Notes: a model not told the origin generated them from the sequence alone. 64,000 nt of DNA from an uncultured Olleya sp. (GCA_947503885.1 CANNFD010000011.1:9310-73309); one strand, 5' to 3'; shown: positions 2,769 through 53,085, counted from the stretch's first letter. Translations and numbers: made by a program.

Positions 2769-3213
2769 TATTGTTTTAGTTGAACCTGAAATACCAAATA
2801 ACACAGGTAATATTGGAAGACTAGCTTTAGCTTCCGGAAGTAAATTACATCTAGTAAAACCCTTCGGGTTTGAACTTAGTGACAAACGCTTAAAGCGCGC
2901 CGGATTAGACTATTGGCAACATTTAGATGTCATTATGTACGATTCTGTAGATGATTTTTTTAATAAAAATAAAGCTGCTAATTTTGCTTTTTTTTCTAGT
3001 CATGGTACTAAATCTCATTGGGATATTCCATTTAAAGACAATCAGTTTTTAGTCTTCGGAAAAGAATCGGTTGGATTAGAAAAAACTATATTAAAAACAC
3101 ATGCAAATGCTCTATACAAAATACCTTTGTATAGTAACCACATTAGAAGCCTAAACCTTGCTAACTCAGTAGGCATTGTTGTATACGAAGGTTTAAGACA
3201 ACTTCAAAAATAA
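2758..3213 (+). CDS. trmL: tRNA (cytidine/uridine-34 2'-O)-methyltransferase, SpoU family
   Basis: IVLVEPEIPNNTGNIGR, LKRAGLDYW, FGKESVGL, RSLNLANSV. Confidence 0.93.
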   Translation: MSLNIVLVEPEIPNNTGNIGRLALASGSKLHLVKPFGFELSDKRLKRAGLDYWQHLDVIMYDSVDDFFNKNKAANFAFFSSHGTKSHWDIPFKDNQFLVFGKESVGLEKTILKTHANALYKIPLYSNHIRSLNLANSVGIVVYEGLRQLQK

Positions 3214-3216
3214 TTT

Positions 3217-4152
3217 ATGGAATCTAAAAAAACTAAAGTTTTAAAATCTGTTTCAGAGTATTTTCAAATCGCATTAGGTATTGTACTAGCTAGTATAGGT
3301 TTAAAAGCTTTTTTATTACCAAATGGATTTTTAGATGGTGGAGTAACGGGAATTGCGCTACTTATTAATGGCTTAATTGGCATCAATATTTCTTTGTTAC
3401 TAGTGTTATTTAGTATTCCTTTTTTAATTATAGGATACTACACCGTTTCTAAACGTATTATACTAAAATCCATAATAAGTATTATTGGTCTTGCACTTTT
3501 TATTCATTTTGAAAATTTTGAAGTCATTACAGAAGACAAGTTTTTAATTTCAATCTTTGGTGGTTTATTTTTAGGTTCAGGAATTGGTATTGCCATCAGA
3601 AATGGTTCTGTCTTGGATGGATCTGAAATTTTAGGAATCTTTATTAATGACCGTTTTGGAATAAGTATTGGAAAAGTAATCCTACTTTTTAATGTTATAT
3701 TATTTACCATTACAGCATTTGTAATCTCTAAAGAAATAGCCATGTACTCTATTCTTACCTACATTGTGACTGCAAAGGTTACCGATCTTGTAATTGAAGG
3801 ATATGAGGATTTTATTGGAGTTTCCATCGTGTCTAAAGATTATAACGAAATTAAACTAGCAATAATTAAAGAGCTTGGTGCTGGAATGACAATTTACAAA
3901 GGTAAAAAAGGCTTTATTACTAAAGGTGAAAATGAAGATATTGATATTATACACACCATTATCAACCGTATTGACATTAAAAAAATGTATCGTATTGTAT
4001 CAAATATAGATGAAGATGCTTTTATTGTAGAGTTTGATGTTAACAATGTAAAGGGTGGTGTATTACGTCGTTATTTACATAGAAAAAAAGGCAAAAAACT
4101 AGCTAAATTCTTAGCTCAAACTGAATTAAAACAACCTGTAATAAAACAATAA
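3217..4152 (+). CDS. YitT family membrane protein
   Basis: FLDGGVTGIALL, GSVLDGSEILG, multiple TM helices, C-terminal soluble domain. Confidence 0.88.
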   Translation: MESKKTKVLKSVSEYFQIALGIVLASIGLKAFLLPNGFLDGGVTGIALLINGLIGINISLLLVLFSIPFLIIGYYTVSKRIILKSIISIIGLALFIHFENFEVITEDKFLISIFGGLFLGSGIGIAIRNGSVLDGSEILGIFINDRFGISIGKVILLFNVILFTITAFVISKEIAMYSILTYIVTAKVTDLVIEGYEDFIGVSIVSKDYNEIKLAIIKELGAGMTIYKGKKGFITKGENEDIDIIHTIINRIDIKKMYRIVSNIDEDAFIVEFDVNNVKGGVLRRYLHRKKGKKLAKFLAQTELKQPVIKQ

Positions 4153-4196
4153 AGGTGGGATTGATGTAAGGTTATTTGCCTTTTTAAAGACAAGAT

Positions 4197-4424
4197 TTAC
4201 TTCTTATTTTTCTTTAAATAATCTAAATACATGTTTTCTACTTTGGTTCTAGCCCAAGGTGTACGACGTAAAAATTTTAAACTAGACTTTACCGAAGGGT
4301 TATCGTTGAAACATTTTATATTAATAACATGTCCCATATATTCCCAGCCATAATGCGCCTGTAAATCGGTAACGATTTGTTCTAATTTAATTCCGTGTAA
4401 AGGGTTATTTTTTTGTGTTTCCAC
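4197..4424 (-). CDS. VF530/DUF2132 family putative nucleic-acid-binding protein
   Basis: [13 protein letters not shown]...HYGWE...[21 protein letters not shown]. Confidence 0.85.
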
Positions 4425-4639
4425 TAGTTGTTTTCTATTAAGCTTTTAATTTTAACTGCTTTTTCAAAATGATCCAATTTATTAGTCTTAATCCACCATG
4501 TAGCAACTTCCATAAGTAATTCTGGACTATCATTTTTATTTTTGAAAAAAGCATAAAAAGAGACTCCAACCTGATCACCCTTTTGGGCAATTTTTTGATT
4601 GCAAGTCTCAATTATTTTATTTTTTAATGCAAGAGTCAT
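4424..4639 (-). CDS. small conserved hypothetical protein (DUF6500-like)
   Basis: 71 aa, KG..VG.SFYAFF.NKND.PELLME.ATWWI pattern; stop/start overlap with the downstream gene. Confidence 0.65.
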
Positions 4640-4647
4640 GTTAAAGA

Positions 4648-5955
4648 CTAACTGTTAGATCGTCTACTGTCGTTGTTTCTGCTTTTAGACTTGCTTCTAT
4701 TACGACCACCTGAGTTTGAAGACGAATTACCTCTAGATTTACCTTTTTCGCCTTTAGGCTTATTGTTTCTAGGTTGTTGTCTTCTGTTTTGTCCTGGTTT
4801 AATTGGCACTGTTGAGGCGTTAGGGTCTGGCTCAAAACCTTCTAAAATATCAACTGGCAACTTCATACCAATTAATTTTTCGATATCTCTTAAAAAAGTA
4901 GTCTCGTCTGCACTTACCAAACTTATTGCTTCACCATTAGCTCCTGCACGACCTGTACGACCAATTCTGTGTACATAATCTTCAGAGATATTTGGGATTT
5001 CAAAGTTAATAACGTGAGGTAATAAAGGGATATCTAAACCACGAGCAGCAATATCTGTTGCTACTAAAACACTTACACTTCCGTTTTTAAATCCAGCCAA
5101 TGCTTTTGTACGTGCACCCTGACTTTTATTTCCATGGATTGCAGCTGCTTTAATACCAGCTTTAATCATTTTTTCTACTAACTTGTTGGCACCATGCTTA
5201 GTACGTGTAAAAACAAGTACTTGTTTCCAATTACCATCATTAATTAACTTAATAATTAAATCCGTTTTCTTTGCTTTAGCAACTCTATATATTTTTTGTG
5301 CAATAGCATCAACCGTTGTGTTTTCTGGAGTCGCTTCTACTTGTACAGGACGATTTAAAATTCCGTTTGCTAGTTTTCTAATATCTTTAGAGAACGTAGC
5401 AGAGAACATTAAGTTTTGACGTTTGTCTGGCATAAGTTTCATTACGCGCTCAATATCGCGTAAAAACCCCATGTCTAGCATACGGTCTGCTTCATCTAAA
5501 ACAAAAATTTCTACACGTTTTAAAGACAGTAAGCCTTGGCTTTCTAGATCTATTAAACGCCCAGGTGTCGCAACTAACACATCAATACCTTGACGTATTG
5601 TTGCAGCTTGAGGTTTTTGATTAACCCCTCCAAATATAACAGCACTTCTCAAGTTTAAAAACTCGCTATACTCTTTTACATTTGCATATACTTGTGCTGC
5701 TAACTCACGTGTTGGCGTTAAAATTAACGCACGGATAGGTCTATATTTTTCTTTCGGGTTTTCCGATAATATGTGTAATAATGGCAGTGTAAAACCTGCT
5801 GTTTTACCAGTTCCTGTTTGTGCAGAAGCTAAAACATCGCGACCTTCTAATACTGGTGGAATGGCTTTTGCTTGAATTGGACTTGGTGTAGTGTATCCTT
5901 TTTTACTAATTGCTTTTAGTAAGGCTTCGGATAAGCCTAAAGATTGAAATGACAT
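4648..5955 (-). CDS. rhlE: DEAD-box RNA helicase (RhlE-like)
   Basis: [31 protein letters not shown]; basic disordered C-tail. Confidence 0.9.
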
Positions 5956-6012
5956 AAATACTGTTTATCGAGATAAACACTATTTAGTTAGGTTACCTCT
6001 TTTAATTTGATG

Positions 6013-6020
6013 CAAAGGTA
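6013..6020 (-). promoter_or_regulatory. Bacteroidota sigma-A -7 element (TACCTTTG) for the helicase operon
   Basis: Matches the TAnnTTTG consensus ~58 nt upstream of the ATG. Confidence 0.6.
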
Positions 6021-6298
6021 CGTTATTTAATGGGTTTTAAATTATAATTGGCTTTTGTTTATGTTTTGACTTAACTGAAGTTGTCTTTTTTTAAACAGAA
6101 TTAATAAAAAAACATAAGCCCTTTTAGCACTTGCAATCCTATATTTAAATCTAAAACAAATAGATTGCTAATTAGGATTTTTGCTTCGCTTTTAATTTAC
6201 TAAATTGTGTGCTTAATCTAATATTTTTGTCATTACAACAATCGTTAAACACTTAACGCGCCAACTACTTTTACAAGTAATAAAACCTAAAATAAAAA

Positions 6299-9800: not shown

Positions 9801-9964
9801 TTATTATAGCTTTTGGCTATTAGCGGTTTGCCTCTAGCACTTAATGTTGTGATTTGTTATTGTATAACTTAAGTACTAAAATACAAATTGTATCCTGTTT
9901 AAAAAAGCTGAAACTATAGTAATTTTATATTTCAAAATATGGTTTTACTATAACGCTAGGTTTT

Positions 9965-10053
9965 GCGTTAGCGATAATAGTAGCATCCTTTTTTTGCTGC
10001 CATATATGGCGAAAAAAGATATAACGGATAGCGCGACCCTTGTGGTAACGCCC
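9965..10053 (-). ncRNA. structured intergenic element resembling the Flavo-1 RNA / Flavobacteriaceae interspersed repeat
   Basis: Minus strand GGGCGTTACCACAAGGGTCGCGCTATCCG...AAAAGGATGCTACTATTATCGCTAACGC; terminal GCGTTA/TAACGC pairing plus an inner hairpin; family assignment is from memory, not a search. Confidence 0.55.
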
Positions 10054-43263: not shown

Positions 43264-43779
43264 ATGAACAACAGTAAAAACAACCTTTGCGAAGAAAATA
43301 GTTTTAGTAATTTTTATTTAGAACATTTACAGTCTGCTAGTAACTTTGCGTATTATAAATGCGGAGATGGCGCTAAATCTTTAGATTTGGTTCAGGATGC
43401 TTTTTCAAAAATTTGGGAAAACTGTTCTAAAATAGAGTTTGCAAAAGCTAAGACTTATCTATTCACCTCTATTAATAATATGTTTTTAAATACCATAAAA
43501 CATAAAAAGGTGGTTATGGAGTATGCAAAAGCTGCTCCTTATATAGATAAAGATAACCAAAGCCCTGAATATTTATTAGAAGAAGAAGAATTTAAAACAA
43601 AGCTACAAAACGCGATCGCTTTATTAACTGATGGGCAACGTGAAGTTTTTTTATTAAATAGAATTGAAGGAAAAAAATATAGAGAAATTGCCGAAATGCT
43701 TGATATATCTCAAAAAGCAGTAGAAAAAAGAATGTCTGGTGCATTAAAAACACTAAAGCAACATATTGAAAACATTTAA
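43264..43779 (+). CDS. ECF RNA polymerase sigma-70 factor
   Basis: DLVQDAF..IW (region 2), L...QREVFLLNRIEGKKYREIAEML.IS.KAVEKRM (region 4). Confidence 0.93.
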   Translation: MNNSKNNLCEENSFSNFYLEHLQSASNFAYYKCGDGAKSLDLVQDAFSKIWENCSKIEFAKAKTYLFTSINNMFLNTIKHKKVVMEYAKAAPYIDKDNQSPEYLLEEEEFKTKLQNAIALLTDGQREVFLLNRIEGKKYREIAEMLDISQKAVEKRMSGALKTLKQHIENI

Positions 43780-43831: not shown

Positions 43832-44746
43832 ATGAAAAAAGAAAACAACATATTAAAATGGTTTAATAACGAATTATCTAATCAAGAGTTAGAGGATTTA
43901 AAACAAACCGAAAACCTAGATGTTTTAGAAAAAATAAAACATTATAGTGCCCAAATGGAAGCGCCTAAAGTTGATGCCCAAAAAGCTTTAGCTGCCTTTA
44001 AACAAAAACAACATACCAAATCAACCCCTAAAGTAATTAGCCTAAACTTTAAAACCTTTTTTAAAGTTGCAGCAATGTTGGTTGTTATGCTTGGCGCATC
44101 TTACTTTGCGTTTTTTAATGACACCAAAACATTTACAACACAAATCGCAGAAACTGAAACTTTAATTTTACCTGATAATTCTGAAGTTATTTTAAATGCT
44201 AAATCTAAATTAACCTACAATAAAAAAACATGGGACGATAAGCGTGATTTAGAATTAGAAGGAGAAGCCTTTTTTAAAGTTAGTAAAGGACAAAAGTTTA
44301 CTGTTACTACAGACGCTGGTGTAGTACAAGTGTTAGGAACCCAATTTAACGTTAAAGAACGTGACAATTACTTTGAAGTAAATTGCTTTGAAGGCTTAGT
44401 AAGTGTAACCTACAACAATCAAACCGTGAAGCTAAAAAAAGGCAAAGGGTATAAAGTTGTTGATGGTATTATTGAACTTACAGAAAGCAATACTATTAAG
44501 GCGCCATCTTGGTTACAAGATGAAAGCAGCTTTACTAAAATAGCTCTAAAACAAGTGATTGCAGAACTAGAACTCCAATATAAAGTCAAAATTAATTTTG
44601 AAAATATTGATGATTCTCAATTATTTACCGGTACTTTTACACATAGTAACTTAAATACTGCATTACAGTCTGTTACTATACCTTTAAAAATTAGTTATAA
44701 AATTGAGAAGAATATAGTTACATTTTATAAATATGAAGAGAACTAG
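43832..44746 (+). CDS. fecR: FecR family anti-sigma factor
   Basis: One TM helix, LPDNSEVILNA.S.L, LEGEAFFKV.KG, VQVLGTQFNV. Confidence 0.92.
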   Translation: MKKENNILKWFNNELSNQELEDLKQTENLDVLEKIKHYSAQMEAPKVDAQKALAAFKQKQHTKSTPKVISLNFKTFFKVAAMLVVMLGASYFAFFNDTKTFTTQIAETETLILPDNSEVILNAKSKLTYNKKTWDDKRDLELEGEAFFKVSKGQKFTVTTDAGVVQVLGTQFNVKERDNYFEVNCFEGLVSVTYNNQTVKLKKGKGYKVVDGIIELTESNTIKAPSWLQDESSFTKIALKQVIAELELQYKVKINFENIDDSQLFTGTFTHSNLNTALQSVTIPLKISYKIEKNIVTFYKYEEN

Positions 44747-47270
44747 ATGGATCGTTTGTTTATTGTTTTTTATAACCAACATTTGCATTAGTCAAACTAC
44801 TACCGATAAAATACCACTAACAGATTATATTAAAACTATTGAAGCAGAATTTGATGTGAAATTCTCCTATGCTGTAGATGATGTTGCTAATATTTTAATT
44901 GATAAACCCACTACTTCATTAAACTTAAAAGAGACCCTTAACTACCTAAACTCTAAAACGTTTTTAAACTTTAAAACTATCGACAACCGTTATATAACGG
45001 TTTCGGTGTTAGAAAAAACAATATCTATTTGTGGTATTGTGCTTTCAGAACACGAACCCCTTTTAGGTGCTTCTGTAATAATATCTGGGACAACAAAAGG
45101 CACAAGTACTAATTACGATGGACAGTTTCAACTAAATAATATTCCGTTAAACACAACCCTTTCAATTTCTTATTTAGGATTTGAAACCCAAACGATTAGC
45201 GCCAAGTATTTTTTTAAGGACGATCAAACTTGCAAACCCTTAACCTTAACAGAAAATAGCGAACAACTTAACGAGGTATTAATCACTAAGTTTCTTACTA
45301 CAGGTTTACAAAAACTAGCTGATGGTAGCATCGTTTTAAACACAGAGCAGTTTGGTATTTTACCGGGACTGATCGAGCCTGACATCCTATTATCTATCCA
45401 AGCACTACCAGGTGTAGAAAGTGTTAATGAAAGTGTTGCAAATATTAATGTTAGAGGTGGTACTAACGACCAAAACCTAATGTTATGGGATGACATAAAA
45501 ATGTACCATTCCGGACACTTTTTTGGACTAATATCGGCTTACAATCCTAATTTAACTAATAAGGTTATTGTTACCAAAAACGGGACCAGCAGCCAATATA
45601 GCGATGGGGTTTCTAGCACCATTAACATGTACACCAAAGACAAAATATCTAATACATTTGCGGGCGGAGTTGGTGTTAATTTAATAAGCGCAGATGCCTT
45701 TTTAGAAGTACCGATTTCTAAAAAATTAGAATTACATATCTCCGGAAGACGCTCTATCACAGATGGGATTTCCACACCTACTTACGAGAATTATTTTGAA
45801 AGAAGTTTTCAGGATAGTGATATCAATACTAATGCTTCAGGCAATAATACAAACACCACATCAGACTTTGTGTTTTATGATTATACTGCAAAGCTACTTT
45901 TTGACTTAAATAAAAATCATAAGTTTAGAGCTAATGTGATTGGTATAAATAACAATTTAGATTATACCGAAAGTGTTTTAAATAACAACAATACAACCAC
46001 CTCAAAAGCAAGTAATTTATCACAAACCAATTTGGGTTATGGTGCTAATTGGAACGCACAATGGACCGACAAGTTTAGCACTACTTTATCCGGAAGCTAC
46101 TCGCAATACAATGTGGATGCTACAGATTTAAAAGTAGAAACCAACCAAGGATTAACACAAGCAAACGAGGTTTTAGAAACAGGCGCACAATTTAAAACTA
46201 AATATAACGTCAATAATAACATGTCCGTTTTAACGGGTTATCAATTTGAAGAAATCGGTATATTAAACCAAACCACTGTTACTGCACCTGCATACGAGCG
46301 TACTAAAAAAGACGTCTTGCTTAATCACGCTGCATTTACAGAAGTAGAATATAATAATAAAAGCACCTATTTTAGACTTGGGGTTAGAGCTAATTATTTT
46401 CAAAAATTTAATCAGCTAATTATTGAGCCTAGAGTAAATATTAGACAAAAGCTATCCCGACAATTGGCTTTAAAACTAGAAGGCGAATTTAAAAATCAGT
46501 CTGTAACACAAATTGTAGATTTTCAGGATGATTTTTTAGGTGTCGAAAACAGACGTTGGATTTTAGCCAATAATACCACAATACCAATATCAACTAGTAA
46601 GCAAGCCTCTTTTGGTGTCGATTTTAAACAAAGCAATTTTAATCTTGACGTTACTGGTTTTTACAAAGTTGTCGATGGGATTACTGCCAGAAACCAAGGG
46701 TTTTATAACAATTTTCAATACCTTAATGCTACAGGAAATTATACCGCAAAAGGCGTCGAGTTTTTAGCCAAAAACACCTCAGAAAAATTAAGTACCTGGT
46801 TAAGTTATGCATATAGTATAAACGAGTACAAATTTGAAACTTTTAACCCTTCTGTTTTTCCTAATAATGTAGATATTAGACACTCTGTCTCCCTAGCATT
46901 TAACTATGCGTTATTTAAAAATTTCCAACTGTCTGTAGGCGGAGTTTGGCATTCTGGACAACCCTATACTAGACCTTTAGAAGGTAACGAAACAGTAGAA
47001 ATTGACGACAACTACTTTGTTAATTATGACCAACCAAACAGTCAAAATGTAGATCCTTTTTTAAGAGTTGACACCTCTATTAGCTACGATATTAACCTGT
47101 CTAACAATTCAAAATTAACTTTTAGAGCTGGTGTTAGAAACCTAACTAACGAAGACAATATCATTAACAAGTATTTTAAAGTTGACCCAGAAGACACCAA
47201 CAAGACCGTTGAGATTAACAATAAGTCTTTAGGATTTACACCAAATGCTAGTTTGCGTGTTAGTTTTTAA
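44733..47270 (+). CDS. TonB-dependent receptor with N-terminal signalling and CarboxypepD_reg-like domains
   Basis: GTSTNYDGQF.L, LPGV...NVRGGTNDQNL plug, terminal LRVSF. Confidence 0.9.
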   Translation: MKRTRWIVCLLFFITNICISQTTTDKIPLTDYIKTIEAEFDVKFSYAVDDVANILIDKPTTSLNLKETLNYLNSKTFLNFKTIDNRYITVSVLEKTISICGIVLSEHEPLLGASVIISGTTKGTSTNYDGQFQLNNIPLNTTLSISYLGFETQTISAKYFFKDDQTCKPLTLTENSEQLNEVLITKFLTTGLQKLADGSIVLNTEQFGILPGLIEPDILLSIQALPGVESVNESVANINVRGGTNDQNLMLWDDIKMYHSGHFFGLISAYNPNLTNKVIVTKNGTSSQYSDGVSSTINMYTKDKISNTFAGGVGVNLISADAFLEVPISKKLELHISGRRSITDGISTPTYENYFERSFQDSDINTNASGNNTNTTSDFVFYDYTAKLLFDLNKNHKFRANVIGINNNLDYTESVLNNNNTTTSKASNLSQTNLGYGANWNAQWTDKFSTTLSGSYSQYNVDATDLKVETNQGLTQANEVLETGAQFKTKYNVNNNMSVLTGYQFEEIGILNQTTVTAPAYERTKKDVLLNHAAFTEVEYNNKSTYFRLGVRANYFQKFNQLIIEPRVNIRQKLSRQLALKLEGEFKNQSVTQIVDFQDDFLGVENRRWILANNTTIPISTSKQASFGVDFKQSNFNLDVTGFYKVVDGITARNQGFYNNFQYLNATGNYTAKGVEFLAKNTSEKLSTWLSYAYSINEYKFETFNPSVFPNNVDIRHSVSLAFNYALFKNFQLSVGGVWHSGQPYTRPLEGNETVEIDDNYFVNYDQPNSQNVDPFLRVDTSISYDINLSNNSKLTFRAGVRNLTNEDNIINKYFKVDPEDTNKTVEINNKSLGFTPNASLRVSF

Positions 47271-47290
47271 TGGACTTCTCTAATTAAAGT

Positions 47291-47380
47291 TACGTCGTTG
47301 TACAAATCTATATTTTTACAAAAACCGACTAACAGAATTGGACAATTGACAAATAAATCAAACGTTTTTTATCAGTGACA
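47291..47380 (+). repeat. degenerate copy R0 of the ~100-bp promoter-like repeat
   Basis: TACGTCGTTGTAC...ACAAAAACCGACTAAC...TTGGACAATTGAC...TTTTTTATCA aligns with 50245-50332. Confidence 0.55.
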
Positions 47381-47534
47381 CAATTAACAAACTAGCCAAT
47401 TACTATTCAATACAAACCATAACTTACACACCTTCAAACACTAAAAGTCATTTTTTTTGTGTCGCAGAGCCCAAAACCTACATACGTGCTAAACAACTAC
47501 TCCTTTTAGGAAGATTATTTAACATAAAGCTAAT

Positions 47535-47600
47535 TTATAGATAGTCTAACAAAAACAAATTAGATTTGTTGAACGATTTGCAAAAAACATGAAACAATTT
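47535..47600 (+). repeat. degenerate copy R1 of the ~100-bp repeat, with a perfect TAGATTTG -7 element at 47561-47568
   Basis: TATAGATAGTCTAACAAAAAC...TTTGTTGAACGATTTGCAAAAAACATGAAAC. Confidence 0.6.
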
Positions 47601-47671
47601 TATATTTTTTAATACATTTGATGCAAATTTTTAAAAAAGAACACAAACAATAATCTATATATTTAATTTTA

Positions 47672-48415
47672 ATGAAAACTTACATTTCCCTTTTTATTTT
47701 TAGCATTTTTACCAATATGATGATAGCCCAAGTAGGAATTGGTACTACAGAGCCAAAAGCCGCATTGGACATTACTTCAGAAGATTCAGGTTTATTAATT
47801 CCTCGTGTTGCACTTAGCGATATAACGGATAGCACCACGGTTAGGACACCATCGGATTCCGATCCTGACGTAGAGGTTAGCACATTGGTTTATAATGATG
47901 GGACCGGAGGCTTACAACCTGCTGGTTTTTATTATTGGGAAGGTAGCAAGTGGATTCAATTTGCATCAACCGAGAAGCAAGTACATGTAGGTAAATTCAA
48001 GATAACAGCTTCTGGGATCACTACTATTGCTGGATTACCATTTAAACCAAAAAGTATCGAGTTTAAAGCATATGCTAATATTGAAGATTACAATTTAAAT
48101 AGCGATAATGGTGTAAATAACAATAACTCAGGATTACAAAACTACTTTGGATACATGCAAGGTTATGCTCAAAACACTTCTGGTACTATTGAGCAGCAAG
48201 TAATAGCAGGTGGTGCAAGTGCCAATTCTGTAAATGACCATTCACGTTACGCTTCGGACACTAATTGTATCGGAGTACGTTATGCAAACCAAAACGGAGA
48301 TTCGTTAGGATTAACAAATGCTTCACTTACCTCTTTTAACGCAGATGGTTTTACATTAAATGTAAGCAATTTTACTGATGGCTTAGTTGTAATTTATACC
48401 GCTTATAAGTATTAA
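47672..48415 (+). CDS. secreted hypothetical protein (Flavobacteriaceae QVGIGT family)
   Basis: Signal peptide, then QVGIGTTEPKAALDITS..SGLLIPRVAL and GFYYWEGSKW. Confidence 0.8.
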   Translation: MKTYISLFIFSIFTNMMIAQVGIGTTEPKAALDITSEDSGLLIPRVALSDITDSTTVRTPSDSDPDVEVSTLVYNDGTGGLQPAGFYYWEGSKWIQFASTEKQVHVGKFKITASGITTIAGLPFKPKSIEFKAYANIEDYNLNSDNGVNNNNSGLQNYFGYMQGYAQNTSGTIEQQVIAGGASANSVNDHSRYASDTNCIGVRYANQNGDSLGLTNASLTSFNADGFTLNVSNFTDGLVVIYTAYKY

Positions 48416-48532
48416 TAATATAAGTAAGCCTAAATTAAAATGTTTTTTTAATAAGCACATCTTAAAATGTAAAACAAAAGCATTATATAATAGTTAGCAT
48501 TATGCTTAAAAATTAATGTTATATAACATAAA

Positions 48533-48592
48533 AACACAAACAAAAAACGCTTTCAAATATCTGAAGGCGTTTTTTAGTATAATAAAGTTTAA
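48533..48592. terminator. copy A of the argS terminator/3' region
   Basis: AACACAAACAAAAAACGCTTTCAAATATCTGAAGGCGTTTTTTAGTATAATAAAGTTTAA, near-identical to 51241-51298. Confidence 0.8.
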
Positions 48593-48895
48593 AACTGAAA
48601 AACGTTTTGTCCAACCACAACTTTTAAAGAATTATCATCTCCGGAAAAAACACCTGCACCTTTCCGGTTAGACAAACTCGTGTAAGAGGGATAGTTTTAC
48701 ACTGTACTTTATCAATTTAGTCATTTAAAAACTAATTGTAATAAGGTAAAAAAGAACCCCTCCCAACCAACTTATGATTAATTCCTAGAGTTAAAATCAA
48801 AAAAAATCAGAAAATATGTATACATTTGATAGAGCTATAATCGATTGAATATCAACAACTAACACTAGCATTAATTGAGATTAAAATAAAATATT

Positions 48896-49261
48896 ATGAA
48901 ACATTTAAAATCCAATTTAATACTGACTTTATTTATTTTTAGCTTTTTGGTTTGTCAATCCTGTAAAAGTGATGATGATTCTCAAGCTCTGGTTGAAATT
49001 TGTAATGACGGAATAGACAATGATGGTGATGGGTTTACAGATTGTGAGGATGCTGACTGTGTTTCAGCCTCAAATTGTGTAATAGAAATTTGTAACGACG
49101 GTATTGACAATGACGGTGATGGGTTTACAGATTGTGATGATGATGATTGTGATTCAGACTCCAACTGTGGTGTTGAAATTTGTAACGACGGTATTGACAA
49201 TGATGGGGATGGATTTACAGATTGTGATGATGATGACTGTACTGCTGATCCAAGTTGTTAA
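48896..49261 (+). CDS. small lipoprotein made of three Cys/Asp-rich putative metal-binding repeats (MopE-like)
   Basis: Lipobox CQSC-KSDDD; 3 x EICNDGIDNDGDGFTDC(E/D)D(A/D)DC. Confidence 0.85.
   Translation: MKHLKSNLILTLFIFSFLVCQSCKSDDDSQALVEICNDGIDNDGDGFTDCEDADCVSASNCVIEICNDGIDNDGDGFTDCDDDDCDSDSNCGVEICNDGIDNDGDGFTDCDDDDCTADPSC
48995..49258 (+). repeat. three tandem 90-nt coding repeats
   Basis: GAAATTTGTAA starts at 48995, 49085 and 49175. Confidence 0.9.
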
Positions 49262-49426
49262 CATAGCCAATACAAAGTTTAAAAACAATTGCTGTTTTTT
49301 ACATATATAATGGCGTATCAAGTTTGCTACGTCTAAATTTTATATATAAAACCCTAGCACACAAACCTACAACGTCACTTTGACTAAAGCTTGTTTTACT
49401 AATAGCCCTTTTTAATATAATATAAT

Positions 49427-49473
49427 AACGCTTTCAAATACTTGAAGGCGTTTTTAGTATAGTAACGTTTTAA
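49427..49473. terminator. copy B of the argS terminator/3' region
   Basis: AACGCTTTCAAATACTTGAAGGCGTTTTTAGTATAGTAACGTTTTAA. Confidence 0.78.
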
Positions 49474-49519
49474 TCTTAAAATGTTTTATTCTGCTACAAC
49501 TATCTACTAGGTTGTGTAA

Positions 49520-49620
49520 AAAAATTTACGTAGTTCTACGTATAGTTTATCTAACATTAAACAACTAATTTCGTTGACCGATTGATAAAAACATTGAAAC
49601 GATTTTTTATCATCGAAATA
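49520..49620 (+). repeat. copy R2 of the ~100-bp promoter-like repeat
   Basis: TACGTAGTTCTAC...TAATTTCGTTGACCGATTGATAAAAACATTGAA...TTTTTTATCATCGAAATA. Confidence 0.85.
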
Positions 49621-49659
49621 ATTACTCGGTAAATTATAAATTGAAATAAAATATAAAAT

Positions 49660-49869
49660 ATGACATTGTTAATAGTAGTAATAGTAGTTGGATTGATTTG
49701 GTATGGAATAAAAATTGGATTTAATATTGGTTGTATAATCGGAGGAATCATTGGAGTATTTATTGGAGGGAGTTTGGGTGTAGCTGGTGGAGGCGGAGCA
49801 TCAAACGGGTGGATTATTTTCGGCGCTATCGGATTTGTTGTTGGGGGATTAATTGCAAATAAAAATTAA
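49660..49869 (+). CDS. small glycine-rich membrane protein
   Basis: 69 aa, hydrophobic GxxxG-rich helices, ATG after an A/T-rich leader. Confidence 0.65.
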   Translation: MTLLIVVIVVGLIWYGIKIGFNIGCIIGGIIGVFIGGSLGVAGGGGASNGWIIFGAIGFVVGGLIANKN

Positions 49870-50044
49870 TATAAAAAATATTATAGGAATAGTAATTCAA
49901 TTTGGATTAGCGAATTATAAAAGAAGTTCAGAGGAATTATTTGAAAATGGCTCAGAATTTATGACAAATCCTACTGTTATAGGAGTTTTGACTCTTTTGA
50001 GTTGGGTTATAATGGTAATCGGAATCGTAAGTTTTTTCTATTAA
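49853..50044 (+). pseudogene. probable fragment of a membrane-protein gene
   Basis: 63 aa, overlaps the upstream gene by 17 nt with a poor N-terminus; hydrophobic C-terminal helix; followed by stop-riddled sequence. Confidence 0.4.
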
Positions 50045-50124
50045 TAAATATTTATGAGTTAACTCGGAATTGAACAATTAAAGCGGAAGAATTAAAACTT
50101 GTTCATTCAGATGTCTCGTAACAG

Positions 50125-50196
50125 TTTGTAACAAAATTTATATAATTTATTGCTAGTTCTATCCTATTTACAAAAGTCCTCGCAGATTTACTATTT
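50125..50196 (+). mobile_element. decayed left half of an attC-like Flavobacteriaceae cassette repeat
   Basis: TTTGTAACAAAATTTATATAATTTATTGCTAGTTCTATCCTATTTACAAAAGTCCTCGCAGATTT; resembles a repeat family I recall from Flavobacteriaceae; right arm absent. Confidence 0.45.
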
Positions 50197-50239
50197 AACC
50201 ACTTTACATATTTACATCTTTAAAAAGGGTATTTATAAC

Positions 50240-50340
50240 AAATCTACGTAGTTGTACTTATAGATTTCTTAACAAAAATCTACTAACTTCGTTGAACGAT
50301 TGATAAAAAACATTGAAGCTTTTTTTTTATCATCGAAATA
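50240..50340 (+). repeat. copy R3 of the ~100-bp promoter-like repeat
   Basis: TACGTAGTTGTAC...TAACTTCGTTGAACGATTGATAAAAAACATTGAA...TTTTTTATCATCGAAATA. Confidence 0.85.
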
Positions 50341-50381
50341 TTGGCAATAATTAAAAAACAAAATAAAACTGCACATTAAAA

Positions 50382-50735
50382 ATGACAAATGACTATCAAG
50401 ATTACAAAATACTTTTAAACAACTACACTTCTTCTTACATTAGTGAATATGGAACAAAAAGTGCTAAAAAGACCATAGAAACAATTCAAAAATCAAAACA
50501 CTCGATTAACTTATTGCATCAAAGCGCAACAAAAGGTTTTGTGCCAACTGTCGGTGATTTTAATTCTTTTGTCCTTAGTAATTTATCGTTGAGCTTTGCA
50601 AAAAAAGCAAAAATTAGATTTGCTTCAATAATCTTATTTAATCATTGGCATAATGATGTTAATGTTGAATTACAACTTTTATCAGAATATGAAGTTATTT
50701 CTTTGTTTAACAAAATCCTTGAAAAAACAATATAA
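50382..50735 (+). CDS. hypothetical protein (cassette ORF 1)
   Basis: 117 aa, ATG after an A-rich leader, no recognisable motif. Confidence 0.7.
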   Translation: MTNDYQDYKILLNNYTSSYISEYGTKSAKKTIETIQKSKHSINLLHQSATKGFVPTVGDFNSFVLSNLSLSFAKKAKIRFASIILFNHWHNDVNVELQLLSEYEVISLFNKILEKTI

Positions 50736-50799
50736 AATTATTTAAAAATAGCCTACTATTTAAAATCAGTAGATTAACTCAAATACTTAGAAAATAATT

Positions 50800-51051
50800 A
50801 TGGATATAAATGAATTGAAAACAGGAATTATCGATGGAATGTCAAAAATTGTAGTTGATGATTTCAGTAAAAGTGAATATAAAGGAACACCTCTTGAAAG
50901 TATGGCTATCATTGAATCATTAAATTACTCATCAAAATGGTACACAAATTGGCTATTGGAAAATAAAATTGATTTTAAGATTTCTGAGGAACAAATTGAT
51001 GATATAATAAAAGATTGTTATACAAAGACGTATGATAAATTTTTAGAATAA
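50800..51051 (+). CDS. hypothetical acidic protein (cassette ORF 2)
   Basis: 83 aa, no recognisable motif. Confidence 0.7.
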   Translation: MDINELKTGIIDGMSKIVVDDFSKSEYKGTPLESMAIIESLNYSSKWYTNWLLENKIDFKISEEQIDDIIKDCYTKTYDKFLE

Positions 51052-51087
51052 TTATATAGTTCTACAGTAATGGTAACCGTATAAAAC

Positions 51088-51216
51088 TATTGCCAACAAC
51101 GTATATAAAAAATAGCGATTTTAGTGCTTAAACGAAAGATAAATAATAAAATAAAGGTCTGTAATAAACCGAAAAGTTAGTGTTTAAAATCCGCTACTTT
51201 TCATATACCAGACCTT
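51088..51216 (+). mobile_element. attC-like imperfect inverted repeat
   Basis: Arms 51101-51123 and 51185-51208: two A/C mismatches (G:T on the bottom strand) and one extrahelical base; GCCAAC at the left end. Confidence 0.65.
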
Positions 51217-51240
51217 TCAACGAAAAGTCAAAATCTATCT

Positions 51241-51298
51241 AACACAAAAAAAAACGCTTTCAATAACTTGAAAGCGTTTTTAGTATAATAAAGTTTAA
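51241..51298. terminator. argS terminator (copy C, native position)
   Basis: AAAACGCTTTCAA-TAAC-TTGAAAGCGTTTT, 2 nt from the argS stop codon. Confidence 0.85.
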
Positions 51299-51300
51299 GC

Positions 51301-53085
51301 TTACATACGTTCTGGCACTGCCACACCTAATAAGCTAAAGGCATTTTTTATTGTTGTTGCTACTGCTTTAGACAGTTGTACCCTAAACACAATTTCGTTT
51401 TGCGTGTCTGCGCCAAGTATAGATACGTTTTGGTAAAAACTATTAAAGGCTTTTACTAGGTCGTAGGTATAATTAGCAATTAACGCTGGACTGTGGTTAT
51501 TGGCTGCTTGTTGTATTACTTCTGGAAACAGTTGTAATTGTTTTATTAGCTCGCGCTCCTTATCATCCAAAGCCACTTGATCTGCGCTTAAAGTTATTGC
51601 AGGGTCTATATTAGCTTTGCGTAATATGGATTGGATTCTGGCATAGGTATACTGTATAAAAGGTCCTGTATTACCCTGAAAATCGATAGAGTCTTTTGGA
51701 TCAAATAAGATTCGTTTTTTAGGGTCTACTTTTAAAATATAATATTTTAAAGCGCCTAAACCTATGGTTTGATATAAGTCTTGCTTTTCTTGGTCTGTGT
51801 AACCGTCCAGTTTACCAAGCTCTTCAGATATGGTTTGTGCTGTGTCTGCCATTTCTACAATTAAATCGTCAGCATCTACAACAGTCCCTTCTCTACTTTT
51901 CATTTTTCCGGAAGGTAAATCTACCATCCCATAACTTAAATGAAACAGGTTTTTTGCCCAATCAAAGCCTAGTTTTTTAATAATTAAAAACAAGACCTGA
52001 AAATGGTATTCTTGCTCGTTACCAACCGTATAAACCATACCACCAACATCTGGATAATCTTTTACACGTTGGATTGCTGTACCAATATCTTGGGTCATGT
52101 ACACTGCTGTACCGTCAGATCGTAGGACAATTTTCTCGTCCAAACCATCTTCGGTCAAATCGCACCATACCGAGCCATCTTCTTTTTTAAAGAACACGCC
52201 AGATTTTAAACCTTCGGCAACAAACTCTTTACCTAAAAGGTAAGTTTGACTTTCATAATATAAATTATCAAAATCTACACCTAGGCTTTTATAGGTTTGG
52301 TCAAACCCTTTATACACCCAACCGTTCATGGTTTGCCAAAGTGCAACAACGTCCTTATCTCCTGCTTCCCATTGTTGTAACATTTGTTGTGCTGCAACCA
52401 AAATTGGTGCTTCTTTTTTAGCGTCGTCTTCGGTTTTACCCTCAGCCATTAAAGCTGCTATTTCCTTTTTGTATTCTTGGTCAAATTTAACGTAGTAATT
52501 ACCTACTAATTTATCTCCTTTTAATCCTGTAGATTCCGGAGTTTCGTTATTGCCAAAACGTTGCCAAGCTAACATACTTTTACAAATATGAATCCCTCGG
52601 TCGTTAATAATCTGTGTTTTATATACTTTTTTACCTGACGCCTTTAATATTTCGGCAACGCTATACCCTAATAAATTATTACGGATATGCCCAAGGTGTA
52701 ATGGTTTGTTGGTGTTAGGCGAAGAATACTCCACCATAATGGCTTTATTTTCCGCTTTAGCGTCCACAAAACCAAATTTTTCTTCGGCTTTAATACTATT
52801 AAAATAGTTTACAAAATAAGAGGCTTCAATCTCAAGATTTAAAAACCCTTTAACCACGTTAAACGCTTTTACCTCTGTAACATTGGCTACTAAATAATCC
52901 CCAATAGCTTCACCAATTTGCATTGGATTACCTTTAACAACCCGTAACATTGGAAAAACTACTACAGTAATATCTCCAGCAAATTCTTTACGAGTAGCTT
53001 GGAATTCTACAGTTTCTAAATCTGCACTGTAAATTGAATTTACAGCTTGTTTCACGAATTTTTCTAAGGTGTTTTGAAGACTCAT
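51301..53085 (-). CDS. argS: arginine--tRNA ligase
   Basis: EYSSPNTNKPLHLGHIRN (HIGH), GKMKSREG, YIQYTYARI; TATATTTG promoter at 53107-53114. Confidence 0.97.
   Translation of the reverse strand: MSLQNTLEKFVKQAVNSIYSADLETVEFQATRKEFAGDITVVVFPMLRVVKGNPMQIGEAIGDYLVANVTEVKAFNVVKGFLNLEIEASYFVNYFNSIKAEEKFGFVDAKAENKAIMVEYSSPNTNKPLHLGHIRNNLLGYSVAEILKASGKKVYKTQIINDRGIHICKSMLAWQRFGNNETPESTGLKGDKLVGNYYVKFDQEYKKEIAALMAEGKTEDDAKKEAPILVAAQQMLQQWEAGDKDVVALWQTMNGWVYKGFDQTYKSLGVDFDNLYYESQTYLLGKEFVAEGLKSGVFFKKEDGSVWCDLTEDGLDEKIVLRSDGTAVYMTQDIGTAIQRVKDYPDVGGMVYTVGNEQEYHFQVLFLIIKKLGFDWAKNLFHLSYGMVDLPSGKMKSREGTVVDADDLIVEMADTAQTISEELGKLDGYTDQEKQDLYQTIGLGALKYYILKVDPKKRILFDPKDSIDFQGNTGPFIQYTYARIQSILRKANIDPAITLSADQVALDDKERELIKQLQLFPEVIQQAANNHSPALIANYTYDLVKAFNSFYQNVSILGADTQNEIVFRVQLSKAVATTIKNAFSLLGVAVPERM

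Follow-up and report, generated by a model that had tools for sequence, protein, structure and literature searches.

The ~4 kb interval between a TonB-dependent receptor gene (TBDR) and argS in an uncultured Olleya sp. is probably a hypervariable hotspot with tandem expression sockets of an integron-like cassette system of the Flavobacteriaceae, and we assign this reading a probability of roughly 0.7. The interval occupies positions 47,271 to 51,300 of the 64,000-nucleotide stretch that was analyzed (the window). Each socket, designated R, would combine a promoter with an attC-like two-stem hairpin, and the argS terminator (T) would close the unit. Circular cassettes, consisting of one or more genes and their own attC, would be cut into the R hairpin at |TT by a tyrosine recombinase acting in trans, most likely the one encoded on contig C6 at 246641-247831, which is located before cassettes of the same family. 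The inserted genes would be read from the R promoter and stopped at T.

Organization and variability of the interval

The features of the interval and its flanks are listed below, with positions in the window.

43264-43779, ECF sigma factor gene, upstream of the TBDR gene; Pfam matches
43832-44746, FecR gene, between the ECF sigma factor gene and the TBDR gene; Pfam matches
44733-47270, + strand, TBDR gene, the fixed left flank; Pfam matches
47283-47400, + strand, R0, doubtful decayed docking/promoter copy; 60% identity to R2 over 90 nt
47505-47638, + strand, R1, at best a decayed docking copy (hairpin part), just upstream of the 247-aa ORF; 70-72% identity to R2/R3 over 67 nt
47672-48415, + strand, gene for a 247-aa secreted protein with a signal-peptide-like N-terminus
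48543-48589, + strand, TA, copy of the argS terminator hairpin (arms 48542-48575) and of the ~20 nt spacer preceding the argS stop codon
48896-49261, + strand, gene for a 121-aa lipoprotein with three 30-aa acidic double-disulfide repeats (NCBIfam NF033662, 96 bits)
49272-49367, + strand, weak, decayed attC-like remnant directly 3' of the lipoprotein gene
49424-49470, + strand, TB, second argS terminator copy with spacer (hairpin 49427-49452)
49501-49621, + strand, R2, probable docking site, left part; holds TACGTAGTTCTACGTA (49527-49542), the -7-like box TAATTTCG (49567-49574) and a hairpin, and ends in ...CGAAATAA|TT
49622-50236, + strand, cassette A, decayed, behind R2; right arm of its attC lost
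49660-49869, + strand, cassette A ORF of 69 aa, Gly-rich membrane protein, orphan among 250 genera
49853-50044, + strand, cassette A ORF of 63 aa, doubtful
50121-50195, + strand, left half of the cassette A attC (R'' box 50125-50132)
50237-50340, + strand, R3, probable docking site, left part; found with the independent model, hairpin covariation, crossover after 50340
50341-51215, + strand, cassette B, two ORFs and an attC, starting with TTGGCAATAAT; inserted in R3
50382-50735, + strand, cassette B ORF of 117 aa
50800-51051, + strand, cassette B ORF of 83 aa
51088-51215, + strand, cassette B attC, with R'' box ATTGCCAAC at 51088-51096; 81 bits, E 3e-25
51216-51228, + strand, right half of the R3 docking hairpin, TTCAACGAAAAGT, complementary to 50288-50297
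51250-51296, no strand assigned, TC, functional two-way terminator of argS and the socket, with the spacer to the argS stop codon; perfect 14-bp stem, 51250-51281
51301-53085, - strand, argS (arginyl-tRNA synthetase), 594-aa ORF, the fixed right flank

Across the seven genomes of the genus that were compared, the length of the interval was found to range from 13 bp (G008) to 9.3 kb (G005), and none of its six ORFs is shared. This is the variable content between fixed TBDR and argS flanks that the initial annotation of the window had predicted. The TBDR is retained beside the interval in G001, G004, G005, G006, G008, and G010, TC is retained beside argS in G001, G003, G004, G005, G006, and G010, and argS is 89-97% identical within the genus. 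The interval is probably a variable hotspot in which cassettes are cut into promoter-carrying hairpin docking sites. The elements that the initial annotation had ordered along the interval are present where it placed them; R2, R3, the three terminators, and both attC-like elements are robust, and R0 and R1 are marginal. Its statement that the window holds no integrase stands for tyrosine recombinases, as the contig of the window gave no match to PF00589. The ORFs of the window matched no immunity, defense, or phage family, and the genes are orphans.

Compared with G005, G006 carries an additional single-gene insert of 960 nt that is bounded by 75-nt direct repeats (93% identical) of the 3'-end of the TBDR gene. 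The hotspot thus does receive inserts that are flanked by long target duplications. The same comparison provides a clean example of single-crossover circle insertion, at the other flank.

The 247-aa protein belongs to a family found in 82 of the 251 genera sampled. Its gene has no cassette signature, and neither R nor attC was found beside its homologs, and its arrival as a cassette is not supported. The lipoprotein gene contains an internal 90-nt tandem repeat. The attC-like remnant at its 3'-end scores 11.3 bits in nhmmer (E 8.6e-4 when 4.4 kb is searched and 0.013 for the full window), and the gene might conceivably also have arrived as a cassette. This remnant is a third attC-like element and was absent from the initial list.

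Cassettes A and B and the terminator copies

On the sequence comparisons, cassette B is considered proven to be a mobile cassette that is mobilized in trans. Its own attC contains TATTGCCAA, the reverse complement of the TTGGCAATA with which the cassette starts (9/9 matches). Cassette B was also found in another genus (G103, 85% over 791 nt) and in metagenome arrays (L116-L119, 86% over 819 nt), where its neighbors are a 225-aa cassette on one side and a Gabija-like gene pair on the other, and the homology to these copies begins exactly at 50341 every time. The initial annotation had taken this two-ORF unit for an attC-type cassette mobilized in trans, and the fit of the start box to its own R'' box and the recurrence of the unit bear this out. 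The moving unit is not, as had been proposed, a promoter-gene-terminator block; it consists of gene and attC, inserted into a pre-existing promoter-bearing R hairpin. The R' core of cassette B reads TTT (51215), and GTT is found in 15 of the 18 relatives in the family alignment. Because the G of the R' core has mutated (GTT to TTT), cassette B is probably fixed in place.

In R3, the -7-like box TAACTTCG is located at 50284-50291 and the outer-stem arm TTCGTTGAAC at 50288-50297, and the inner hairpin is formed by the pairing of 50301-50310 with 50323-50332. The two halves of the R3 hairpin are 875 nt apart. Cassette A, behind R2, is shown to be a decayed cassette insertion; its start box is not convincing, with a match of 4 nt only and a nearby alternative (8/10) that is within chance.

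The terminator copies TA, TB, and TC are 88% alike over 44-60 nt, and one similar hairpin occurs elsewhere (C4:23189) in addition to the three at the locus. The serial addition of whole units beside argS that was initially suggested was not demonstrated, and the socket model leaves the terminator copies unexplained. The arm variant GAAGGCG is common to TA and TB and is found neither in TC nor in any of the relatives, a distribution more readily accounted for by local duplication or gene conversion than by TC having been copied repeatedly. One guess is that the T copies and sockets multiplied either through local tandem duplication or through the insertion of small circles, each entering by one crossover within the 60-100 nt T segment.

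These copies bear on a different explanation, in which small integrative elements or circles entered at the 3'-end of argS, T represents att- or Campbell-type repeats, and R and the cassettes are passengers rather than capture machinery. Three direct copies of the hairpin and the ~20 nt spacer bound the modules, an older T copy lies upstream of the material inserted beside argS in G005 and G006, and the 960-nt insert of G006 has its own direct repeats, all of which favor such elements. However, no integrase was found on the contig of the window, the inserts are just 0.9-1.8 kb in length, and the similarity of TA and TB does not extend significantly into the argS codons (z = 2.0 and 0.4, respectively). 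The exact G|TT boundaries of cassette B and the split R3 hairpin would also be left unexplained. As an account of the whole interval, this explanation is unlikely; an integrative-element origin is quite plausible for the T copies by themselves, in parallel with the insertion of cassettes into R sockets.

The R element

R itself appears to be a docking or recombination site, composed of a Bacteroidetes-type promoter and a hairpin with an outer stem that is split by the cassette. Using a model built from the copies of relatives only, and hence independent of the window, R2 was matched at 49501-49639 (E 1e-16) and R3 at 50218-50361 (E 4e-23). R0 and R1 were not found with this model in a search of the whole window. 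When the search was restricted to the 400 nt upstream of the 247-aa gene, they scored 1.5 bits and 4.7 bits (E 0.01), respectively, and they may at best be decayed R copies.

The socket is ~105 nt in length and forms a two-stem hairpin, with TTCGTTKAAC pairing with GTTMAACGAA in the outer stem, an inner stem of ~10 bp, and the crossover at (G/A)|TT. Over 12 rejoined or empty sites, 94.6% of the cells are paired, with compensatory changes in seven pairs. The outer-stem pair 11-60 is U-A in nine sites and G-C in three (R3 included) and is never broken. At nine loci (G002, G008, and G009), the order downstream of R is one or two genes, a same-strand attC, the invariant G|TTAAACGAA, and a terminator. 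Empty R sites read ...GAGAAA|TTAAACGAA (G000 C1:434911) and ...AAACG|TTCAACGAA (G002). In G008, the ortholog of the G000 site is interrupted in its loop by a gene that has no attC; the cassette grammar is thus not obeyed in every event at R.

The published consensus for Bacteroidetes promoters is TTG/TAnnTTTG, and R is close to it. The pattern in R is TTG or TAG, a distance of ~19-20 nt, and then TAACTTCG, which is of the Bacteroidetes sigma-A type. The dispersed copies have CTTGAC, a 19-nt spacer, and the same box, and R2 and R3 have TAG instead of TTG at -33. Approximately 24 of the 26 aligned R copies are located a short distance upstream of a same-strand ORF. By its match to the consensus, R is predicted to be an active promoter, in agreement with its first description as promoter-like.

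It could also be argued that R is a mere dispersed mobile promoter or small-RNA-like repeat, that the interval varies by homologous recombination in the flanks, and that the adjacency of R and cassettes is incidental. The R copies are scattered, with 12 each in G002 and G009, an attC was found downstream at only ~9-11 of the ~25 R loci inspected, and the flanks are conserved enough for homologous exchange. The copy at G000 C1:434911 faces the 3'-end of a convergent gene and has no ORF to drive. However, an invariant TTAAACGAA follows the last attC, supplies the missing part of the R hairpin, and covaries with its left arm over 12 sites, and the cassette starts abut R at one fixed position. These properties are not expected if the adjacency were incidental. 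We consider this alternative quite improbable and prefer R as the docking site.

The candidate recombinase and related systems

The search for more attC copies and for an IntI-like tyrosine recombinase that the initial annotation had suggested was productive. At least 40 further attC-like sites were found in the genome, and a candidate Xer/IntI-like recombinase is encoded at C6:246641-247831, on a contig other than that of the window. In 29 adjacent pairs of sites, the 7 nt that follow G|TT were compared with the reverse-complemented R'' box of the next site; on average 6.1 of 7 positions match, compared with 2.6 of 7 for non-adjacent control pairs, 3.3% of which reach 6. In the C1 array, 11 of 11 reach 6 or 7 of 7, and 10 are perfect. 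AAC and GTT are in register in 32 of 41 attC-like sites, and compensated changes were found in 11 pairs of the 15-pair stem. The bottom strand folds better in 32/32 attC sites (-40.7 vs -31.5 kcal/mol, using RNA energy parameters).

The C6 protein would most likely be the recombinase that acts on these sites. Its gene is followed by two cassettes on the same strand, and the protein has an N-terminal extension of ~100 aa. Full-length homologs were found in 40 of the 61 genera sampled, and same-strand attC-like sites lie downstream of the recombinase gene at 11 of 19 loci of other genera (12 of 20 when that of G000 is included). A close homolog (E <= 1e-40) was not found in G009, despite the 12 R copies of that genome. 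None of the proteins of the genome reaches the cutoff of 265 for the IntI model TIGR02249. The best match scores 118.7 + 86.3 bits and leaves model positions 179-237, the IntI-specific segment, unmatched; in the alignment to VchIntI4 (2a3v), there are 16 residues where IntI4 has 59.

A CALIN is defined in IntegronFinder by at least two attC, found with its covariance model within 4 kb, and no intI nearby; home-made models detect, in a 2-kb part of the window, a near-complete attC, half of another, and a weak remnant. A classical integron remnant, that is, a CALIN with attC sites served by a canonical IntI, would account for the way the sites are built like attC, for their G|TT grammar, and for the folding bias toward the bottom strand but is very improbable given the IntI scores below the cutoff, the missing IntI-specific segment, the 16 residues opposite 59 of IntI4, the co-orientation of the recombinase with the cassettes, its N-terminal extension, and surveys in which the Bacteroidetes are nearly empty of integrons (PMC9024848).

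We see somewhat better than an even chance that the Flavobacteriaceae possess a "distributed integron", in which one Xer-like recombinase without the IntI domain serves both large cassette stores and many dispersed sockets. If so, each socket could supply its own promoter and terminator to whichever stored or imported cassette is inserted there, and local multiplication of sockets, as beside argS, would yield arrays with a separate promoter for each cassette. It would also contradict the view that folded-attC recombination needs the IntI-specific domain.

The system resembles integrons in several respects. In both, a cassette is composed of one or more genes and an imperfect palindrome that folds and bears R''/L''/L'/R' boxes, and crossover occurs at G|TT so that the first bases of the cassette complement its own R'' box; by the folding energies calculated here with RNA parameters, the bottom strand likewise folds better than the top. 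Co-oriented arrays, and cassettes located away from the integrase, are also known from integrons (sedentary chromosomal, CALIN, and solitary at attG), and a promoter located where the cassettes insert drives their expression, as predicted here. In contrast, the recombinase described here lacks the IntI-specific segment, is extended at its N-terminus, and is co-oriented with the array, and the attC sites are ~135-142 nt in length and form sequence families of their own. Integrons have a single attI with Pc beside it, divergent from intI, whereas in the window cassettes enter at dispersed promoter-bearing attC-like hairpins, remote from any recombinase gene, with four tandem copies at the locus (R0 and R1 marginal). 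A genomic attG of classical integrons reportedly needs only a short GNT motif and brings no promoter of its own.

The pdif modules of Acinetobacter plasmids are likewise discrete gene modules bounded by sites for a Xer-type recombinase encoded elsewhere. Their dif sites are double-stranded, 28 bp in length, and lack a long folded structure, and the modules have neither the G|TT cassette grammar nor a promoter-bearing socket.

No published description of such a system was found in the literature beyond the rAID-1 arrays of Bacteroidales. The rAID-1 (recombinase-associated acquired interbacterial defense) arrays of gut Bacteroidales were defined by a recombinase at least 44% identical to one of B. 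fragilis (BF9343_RS08045) and by immunity-gene content, and their intergenic repeats were called "reminiscent of integrons" (Ross et al. 2019, bioRxiv 10.1101/471110). The two systems share the phylum, a XerD-like tyrosine recombinase at the 5'-end of co-directional small accessory genes, and repetitive intergenic sequences. However, that paper describes neither cassette boundaries nor folded sites nor docking sites that are dispersed, and its array genes are orphan immunity genes, whereas those found here are orphans that match no immunity or defense family. The rAID-1 layout, a recombinase gene at the 5'-end followed by at least two co-directional genes, is absent from the window itself and was found outside it at C6:246641-249200 and at 11 of the 19 recombinase loci of other genera.

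The interval between the receptor gene and argS

The window corresponds to C11:9310–73309 of the source genome (G000). In it, the interval between the TonB-dependent receptor (TBDR) gene, which is preceded by ECF sigma factor and FecR genes, and the convergent argS gene was found to be 4,030 bp in length. The features referred to below are as follows.

44733–47270, TBDR gene
49622–50236, cassette A, a decayed unit behind R2
50288–50297 and 51216–51225, the two halves of R3
50341–51215, cassette B, a two-ORF unit with an attC-like site
51088–51215, attC-like site of cassette B
51301–53085, argS, convergent with the TBDR gene

The initial annotation listed the promoter-like elements R0 and R1, a secreted protein gene, terminator copy TA, a lipoprotein gene, terminator copy TB, R2, small membrane ORFs with half of an attC-like site, R3, cassette B, and terminator copy TC, and this order is present exactly. 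The observation was largely confirmed, and its interpretation as a hotspot for serial gene capture was right in its main thrust. The unit proposed to move, however, was promoter-gene-terminator; this has been corrected to the cassette, with R as the predicted promoter and recombination site.

As anticipated, the interval is variable between fixed flanks, with lengths of 13 bp to 9.3 kb across seven genomes of the genus.

Length of the TBDR–argS interval in seven genomes of the genus
G008: 13 bp, without any terminator
G004: 1.7 kb
G010: 1.9 kb
G001: 3.3 kb
G000: 4.0 kb
G006: 8.7 kb
G005: 9.3 kb

None of the six ORFs in the G000 interval is present in the intervals of the other genomes in this set. 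R-type elements and extra copies of the argS terminator are also found in the intervals of G005, G006, and G010. The neighbor of argS differs in four further genomes of the genus, and the DNA at the 3' end of argS is variable there too. An exact look-up of ArgS returned no strain of the same species. Large genes lie behind R-type elements in two of the intervals: a 1,106-aa protein gene in G005 (locus L014, oriented 2818–6138) and a pair encoding 196 and 360 aa in G006 (locus L013, 3805–5464). These look like the cargo of defense islands.

attC-like sites and cassettes

In a DNA search of relatives, two short parts of the interval turned out to be family-wide repeats. Using a profile search, at least 40 copies of the attC-like site were found in G000, most of them in arrays of co-oriented small ORFs that run off contig ends (C1:495–506 kb, C8:0.5–5.8 kb, C13, C19, C22, and C23), and two more copies immediately follow the gene for a tyrosine recombinase on C6. 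The sites are approximately 135–142 nt long, starting with ...NNNNNNNAAC and ending with GTTNNNNNNN, and conservation ceases at GTT. For 29 adjacent pairs, the 7 nt that follow the crossover point G|TT agree with the reverse-complemented pre-AAC box of the next site at a mean of 6.1 of 7 positions, compared with control values of 2.6 of 7 for non-adjacent pairings and 2.3 of 7 for the two boxes within one site. In the C1 array, all 11 pairs match at 6 or 7 of the 7 positions (10 perfectly). Compensatory changes were found in 11 of the 15 pairs of the stem, and, with RNA parameters, the bottom strand gives the more stable fold in all 32 of the sites folded. The integron grammar is the decisive test, and by it the attC-like elements are real recombination sites.

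The site of cassette B is a member of a subfamily common to many genera. Directly after the end of R3, the sequence TTGGCAATA at 50341 reads as the R'' box of this site, TATTGCCAAC, in reverse complement. The two-gene unit was found in a different genus (genome G103; 85% identity over 791 nt) and in metagenome contigs (86% over 819 nt), where the homolog is part of an array, with a 225-aa cassette on one side and a Gabija-like pair (AAA/TOPRIM and UvrD) on the other. In G103 and the metagenome contigs the homology to the window begins exactly at 50341, after the ...ACG|TT or ...TTG|TT of an upstream site. The left boundary is thereby known to the base, and the unit is shown to move as a cassette. 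The core of the R' box is TTT in the window instead of the GTT found in 15 of 18 relatives, a change by which the window copy of cassette B has probably been immobilized.

On metagenome contig L116 (4970–8354; ENA NODE_1085, sample ERZ25043458), the cassette adjoining the cassette B homolog has genes for an OLD-like AAA/TOPRIM protein and for a UvrD helicase. This Gabija-like defense pair indicates that the cassette system also carries anti-phage cassettes. Distant homologs (61–77%) of the 117-aa protein of cassette B are encoded on two Logan contigs, L120 and L121, where the neighbors are an HTH repressor, AAA_24 and DUF3871 replication genes, and a phage-type integrase. The context is that of a phage-like or integrative element and suggests a phage origin for the 117-aa protein gene. 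On L121, a partial attC-like match immediately follows the homolog.

R elements as putative docking sites

R0 to R3 had been annotated as copies of one repeat. With a model built only from the copies in other genomes, this was upheld for R2 and R3 (E values of 1e-16 and 4e-23), but R0 and R1 gave no match in the whole-window search and were marginal (1.5 and 4.7 bits) in a search of just the 400 nt that precede the 247-aa gene. Copies of R are dispersed in the genus, with 12 in G002 and 12 in G009; G000 has few, four of which are within the interval (two solid and two decayed). Exact matches to the R core were also found in Lacinutrix, Gaetbulibacter, and Mesoflavibacter.

The alignment of R has three parts, the first of which is a –33/–7 pair composed of CTTGAC, 19 nt, and TAACTTCG; in R2 and R3, the –7-like box is TAACTTCG or TAATTTCG. 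The Bacteroidetes sigma-A consensus is TTG/TAnnTTTG, and the predicted pair is close to it. The second part is a hairpin with compensatory variation in its stem, and the similarity ends abruptly at (A/G)|TT. In nine loci, R precedes one or two genes plus an attC on the same strand; next comes, without exception, G|TTAAACGAA (in one locus, TTCAACGAA) and then a terminator. The first bases of each cassette in these loci complement its own R'' box. The R hairpin starts with TTCGTTTAA, to which TTAAACGAA is the reverse complement. R, the probable docking site, is therefore a small attC-like hairpin split by the cassette.

Unsplit copies of R are located at C1:434911 in G000 and, in G002, beside argS. 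For 12 rejoined or empty sites, the two-stem structure has 94.6% of its cells paired and 7 compensated pairs; at the outer-stem pair, nine sites have U-A and three have G-C, among them R3 of the window, whose halves are separated by 875 nt. The locus of the unsplit G000 copy (C1:433390–436465) has an ortholog in G008 (L033, G008:C2:384920–387962), in which the left half of R is present and is interrupted in the hairpin loop by approximately 1 kb of inserted DNA with a gene for a beta-propeller-like protein; the right half of R is missing. The two genomes do not provide a clean comparison of an empty and an occupied site, in that the G008 insert is a gene without an attC; it is a different kind of event at the docking site.

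The motif TACGTA-N4-TACGTA occurs 8 times in the G000 genome, compared with an expected value of 0.36. It occupies the –33 position in the R copies of the window and is thus probably a binding site for a regulator. Four copies at C2:191400–191950 head a tandem array of units of approximately 140 nt, each with a TAnnTTnG-like box and a terminator, that look like four candidate small-RNA genes. The other copies are at C4:25763, C7:74851, C9:107450, and 49527–49542 of the window.

Candidate recombinase and related systems

An IntI-like recombinase was to be sought elsewhere in the genome. A search of G000 with the IntI model found no classical IntI, but a tyrosine recombinase on contig C6 (246641–247831, 396 aa) is a candidate. 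This protein just reached the NCBI "XerA / integron integrase" model (221 bits, cutoff of 220) and failed the IntI model (203 bits, cutoff of 265). It aligns with VchIntI4 on both sides of the IntI-specific segment, where it has 16 residues versus the 59 of IntI4. It has an N-terminal extension of approximately 100 aa, and its gene points in the same direction as its cassettes. Full-length homologs, named XerD, site-specific integrase, or at times integron integrase in public databases, were found in 40 of the 61 genera sampled, often at contig ends. On the same strand, attC-like sites lie downstream at 11 of 19 recombinase loci from other genera (12 of 20 with that of G000). No close homolog was found in G009, despite its R sites and cassettes.

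Surveys of integrons have described the Bacteroidota as almost integron-free, with IntegronFinder 2.0 finding the Bacteroidetes nearly empty (PMC9024848). In such surveys, an enzyme that recombines folded attC sites is recognized by its IntI-specific domain. The cassette grammar of the Olleya system is the same as that of integrons, but two defining features fail: the candidate recombinase lacks the IntI domain, and there is no single attI beside an intI gene. Classical integrons, in turn, do not have the many small, portable, promoter-bearing docking sites. Within the phylum, the closest published system is rAID-1 of the Bacteroidales, in which an XerD-like recombinase is followed by arrays with integron-like intergenic repeats (bioRxiv 10.1101/471110); cassette boundaries, folded sites, and docking sites are not described in that report. 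Full-text literature searches found no published description of such arrays in Flavobacteriaceae.

An abundant marine family has here a full cassette grammar with a candidate recombinase that lacks the IntI-specific domain, together with probable docking sites, each with its own predicted promoter, that are scattered across the chromosome and multiplied at a hotspot beside an essential gene. If confirmed, this would broaden the definition of integron-like gene capture, help to explain strain-level variation in the gene content of marine flavobacteria, and provide the genetic toolbox for Bacteroidota with a compact natural "landing pad plus promoter". Annotation at present misses such loci and many orphan cassette genes.

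Terminator copies and other modules

The three copies of the argS terminator are clear, and their common part is the hairpin plus approximately 20 nt of spacer up to the argS stop codon. The terminator was rejected as a dispersed element, there being three copies at the locus and one similar hairpin at C4:23189 without the common spacer. Remnants of argS codons in TA and TB, as the signature of an att site, were unsupported against shuffles and window tiles (z = 2.0 and 0.4). TA and TB have a common arm variant that is absent from TC and all relatives, and the tail of TA is closest to TC. This mosaic points to a putative origin by local duplication or gene conversion; the docking-site model leaves the terminator copies unexplained. 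Relative to G005, which has the empty site, G006 (L013, G006:C1:4260500–4272500) has a 960-nt insert with one 271-aa ORF directly after the TBDR gene. On each side of this insert is a 75-nt direct repeat of the last 57 nt of the receptor gene plus its stop, and the two repeats are 93% identical. Inserts with long target duplications, for example small circles integrated by a single crossover, therefore occur at the hotspot.

In cassette A, a Gly-rich membrane ORF is accompanied by an attC of which the left half remains, the right arm being lost where R3 begins. The ORF is an orphan among 250 genera, and the start box gave no match beyond chance. The attC-like remnant after the lipoprotein gene is weak. 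The 247-aa gene is from a widespread family of secreted proteins, and neither R nor attC was found near its homologs at any of 9 loci; it cannot be called a cassette. Searches of the six ORFs against Pfam, NCBIfam, PADLOC, and PHROGs gave an acidic double-disulfide repeat as the sole match. In the 121-aa lipoprotein gene, three 90-nt tandem repeats (48995–49264; 78–83% identical) encode this repeat, EICNDGIDNDGDGFTDC(D/E)D.DC. The only known RNA family found was Flavo-1 (Rfam RF01705), on the plus strand at 9960–10042 with 53 bits against a gathering score of 42, which is unrelated to the interval.
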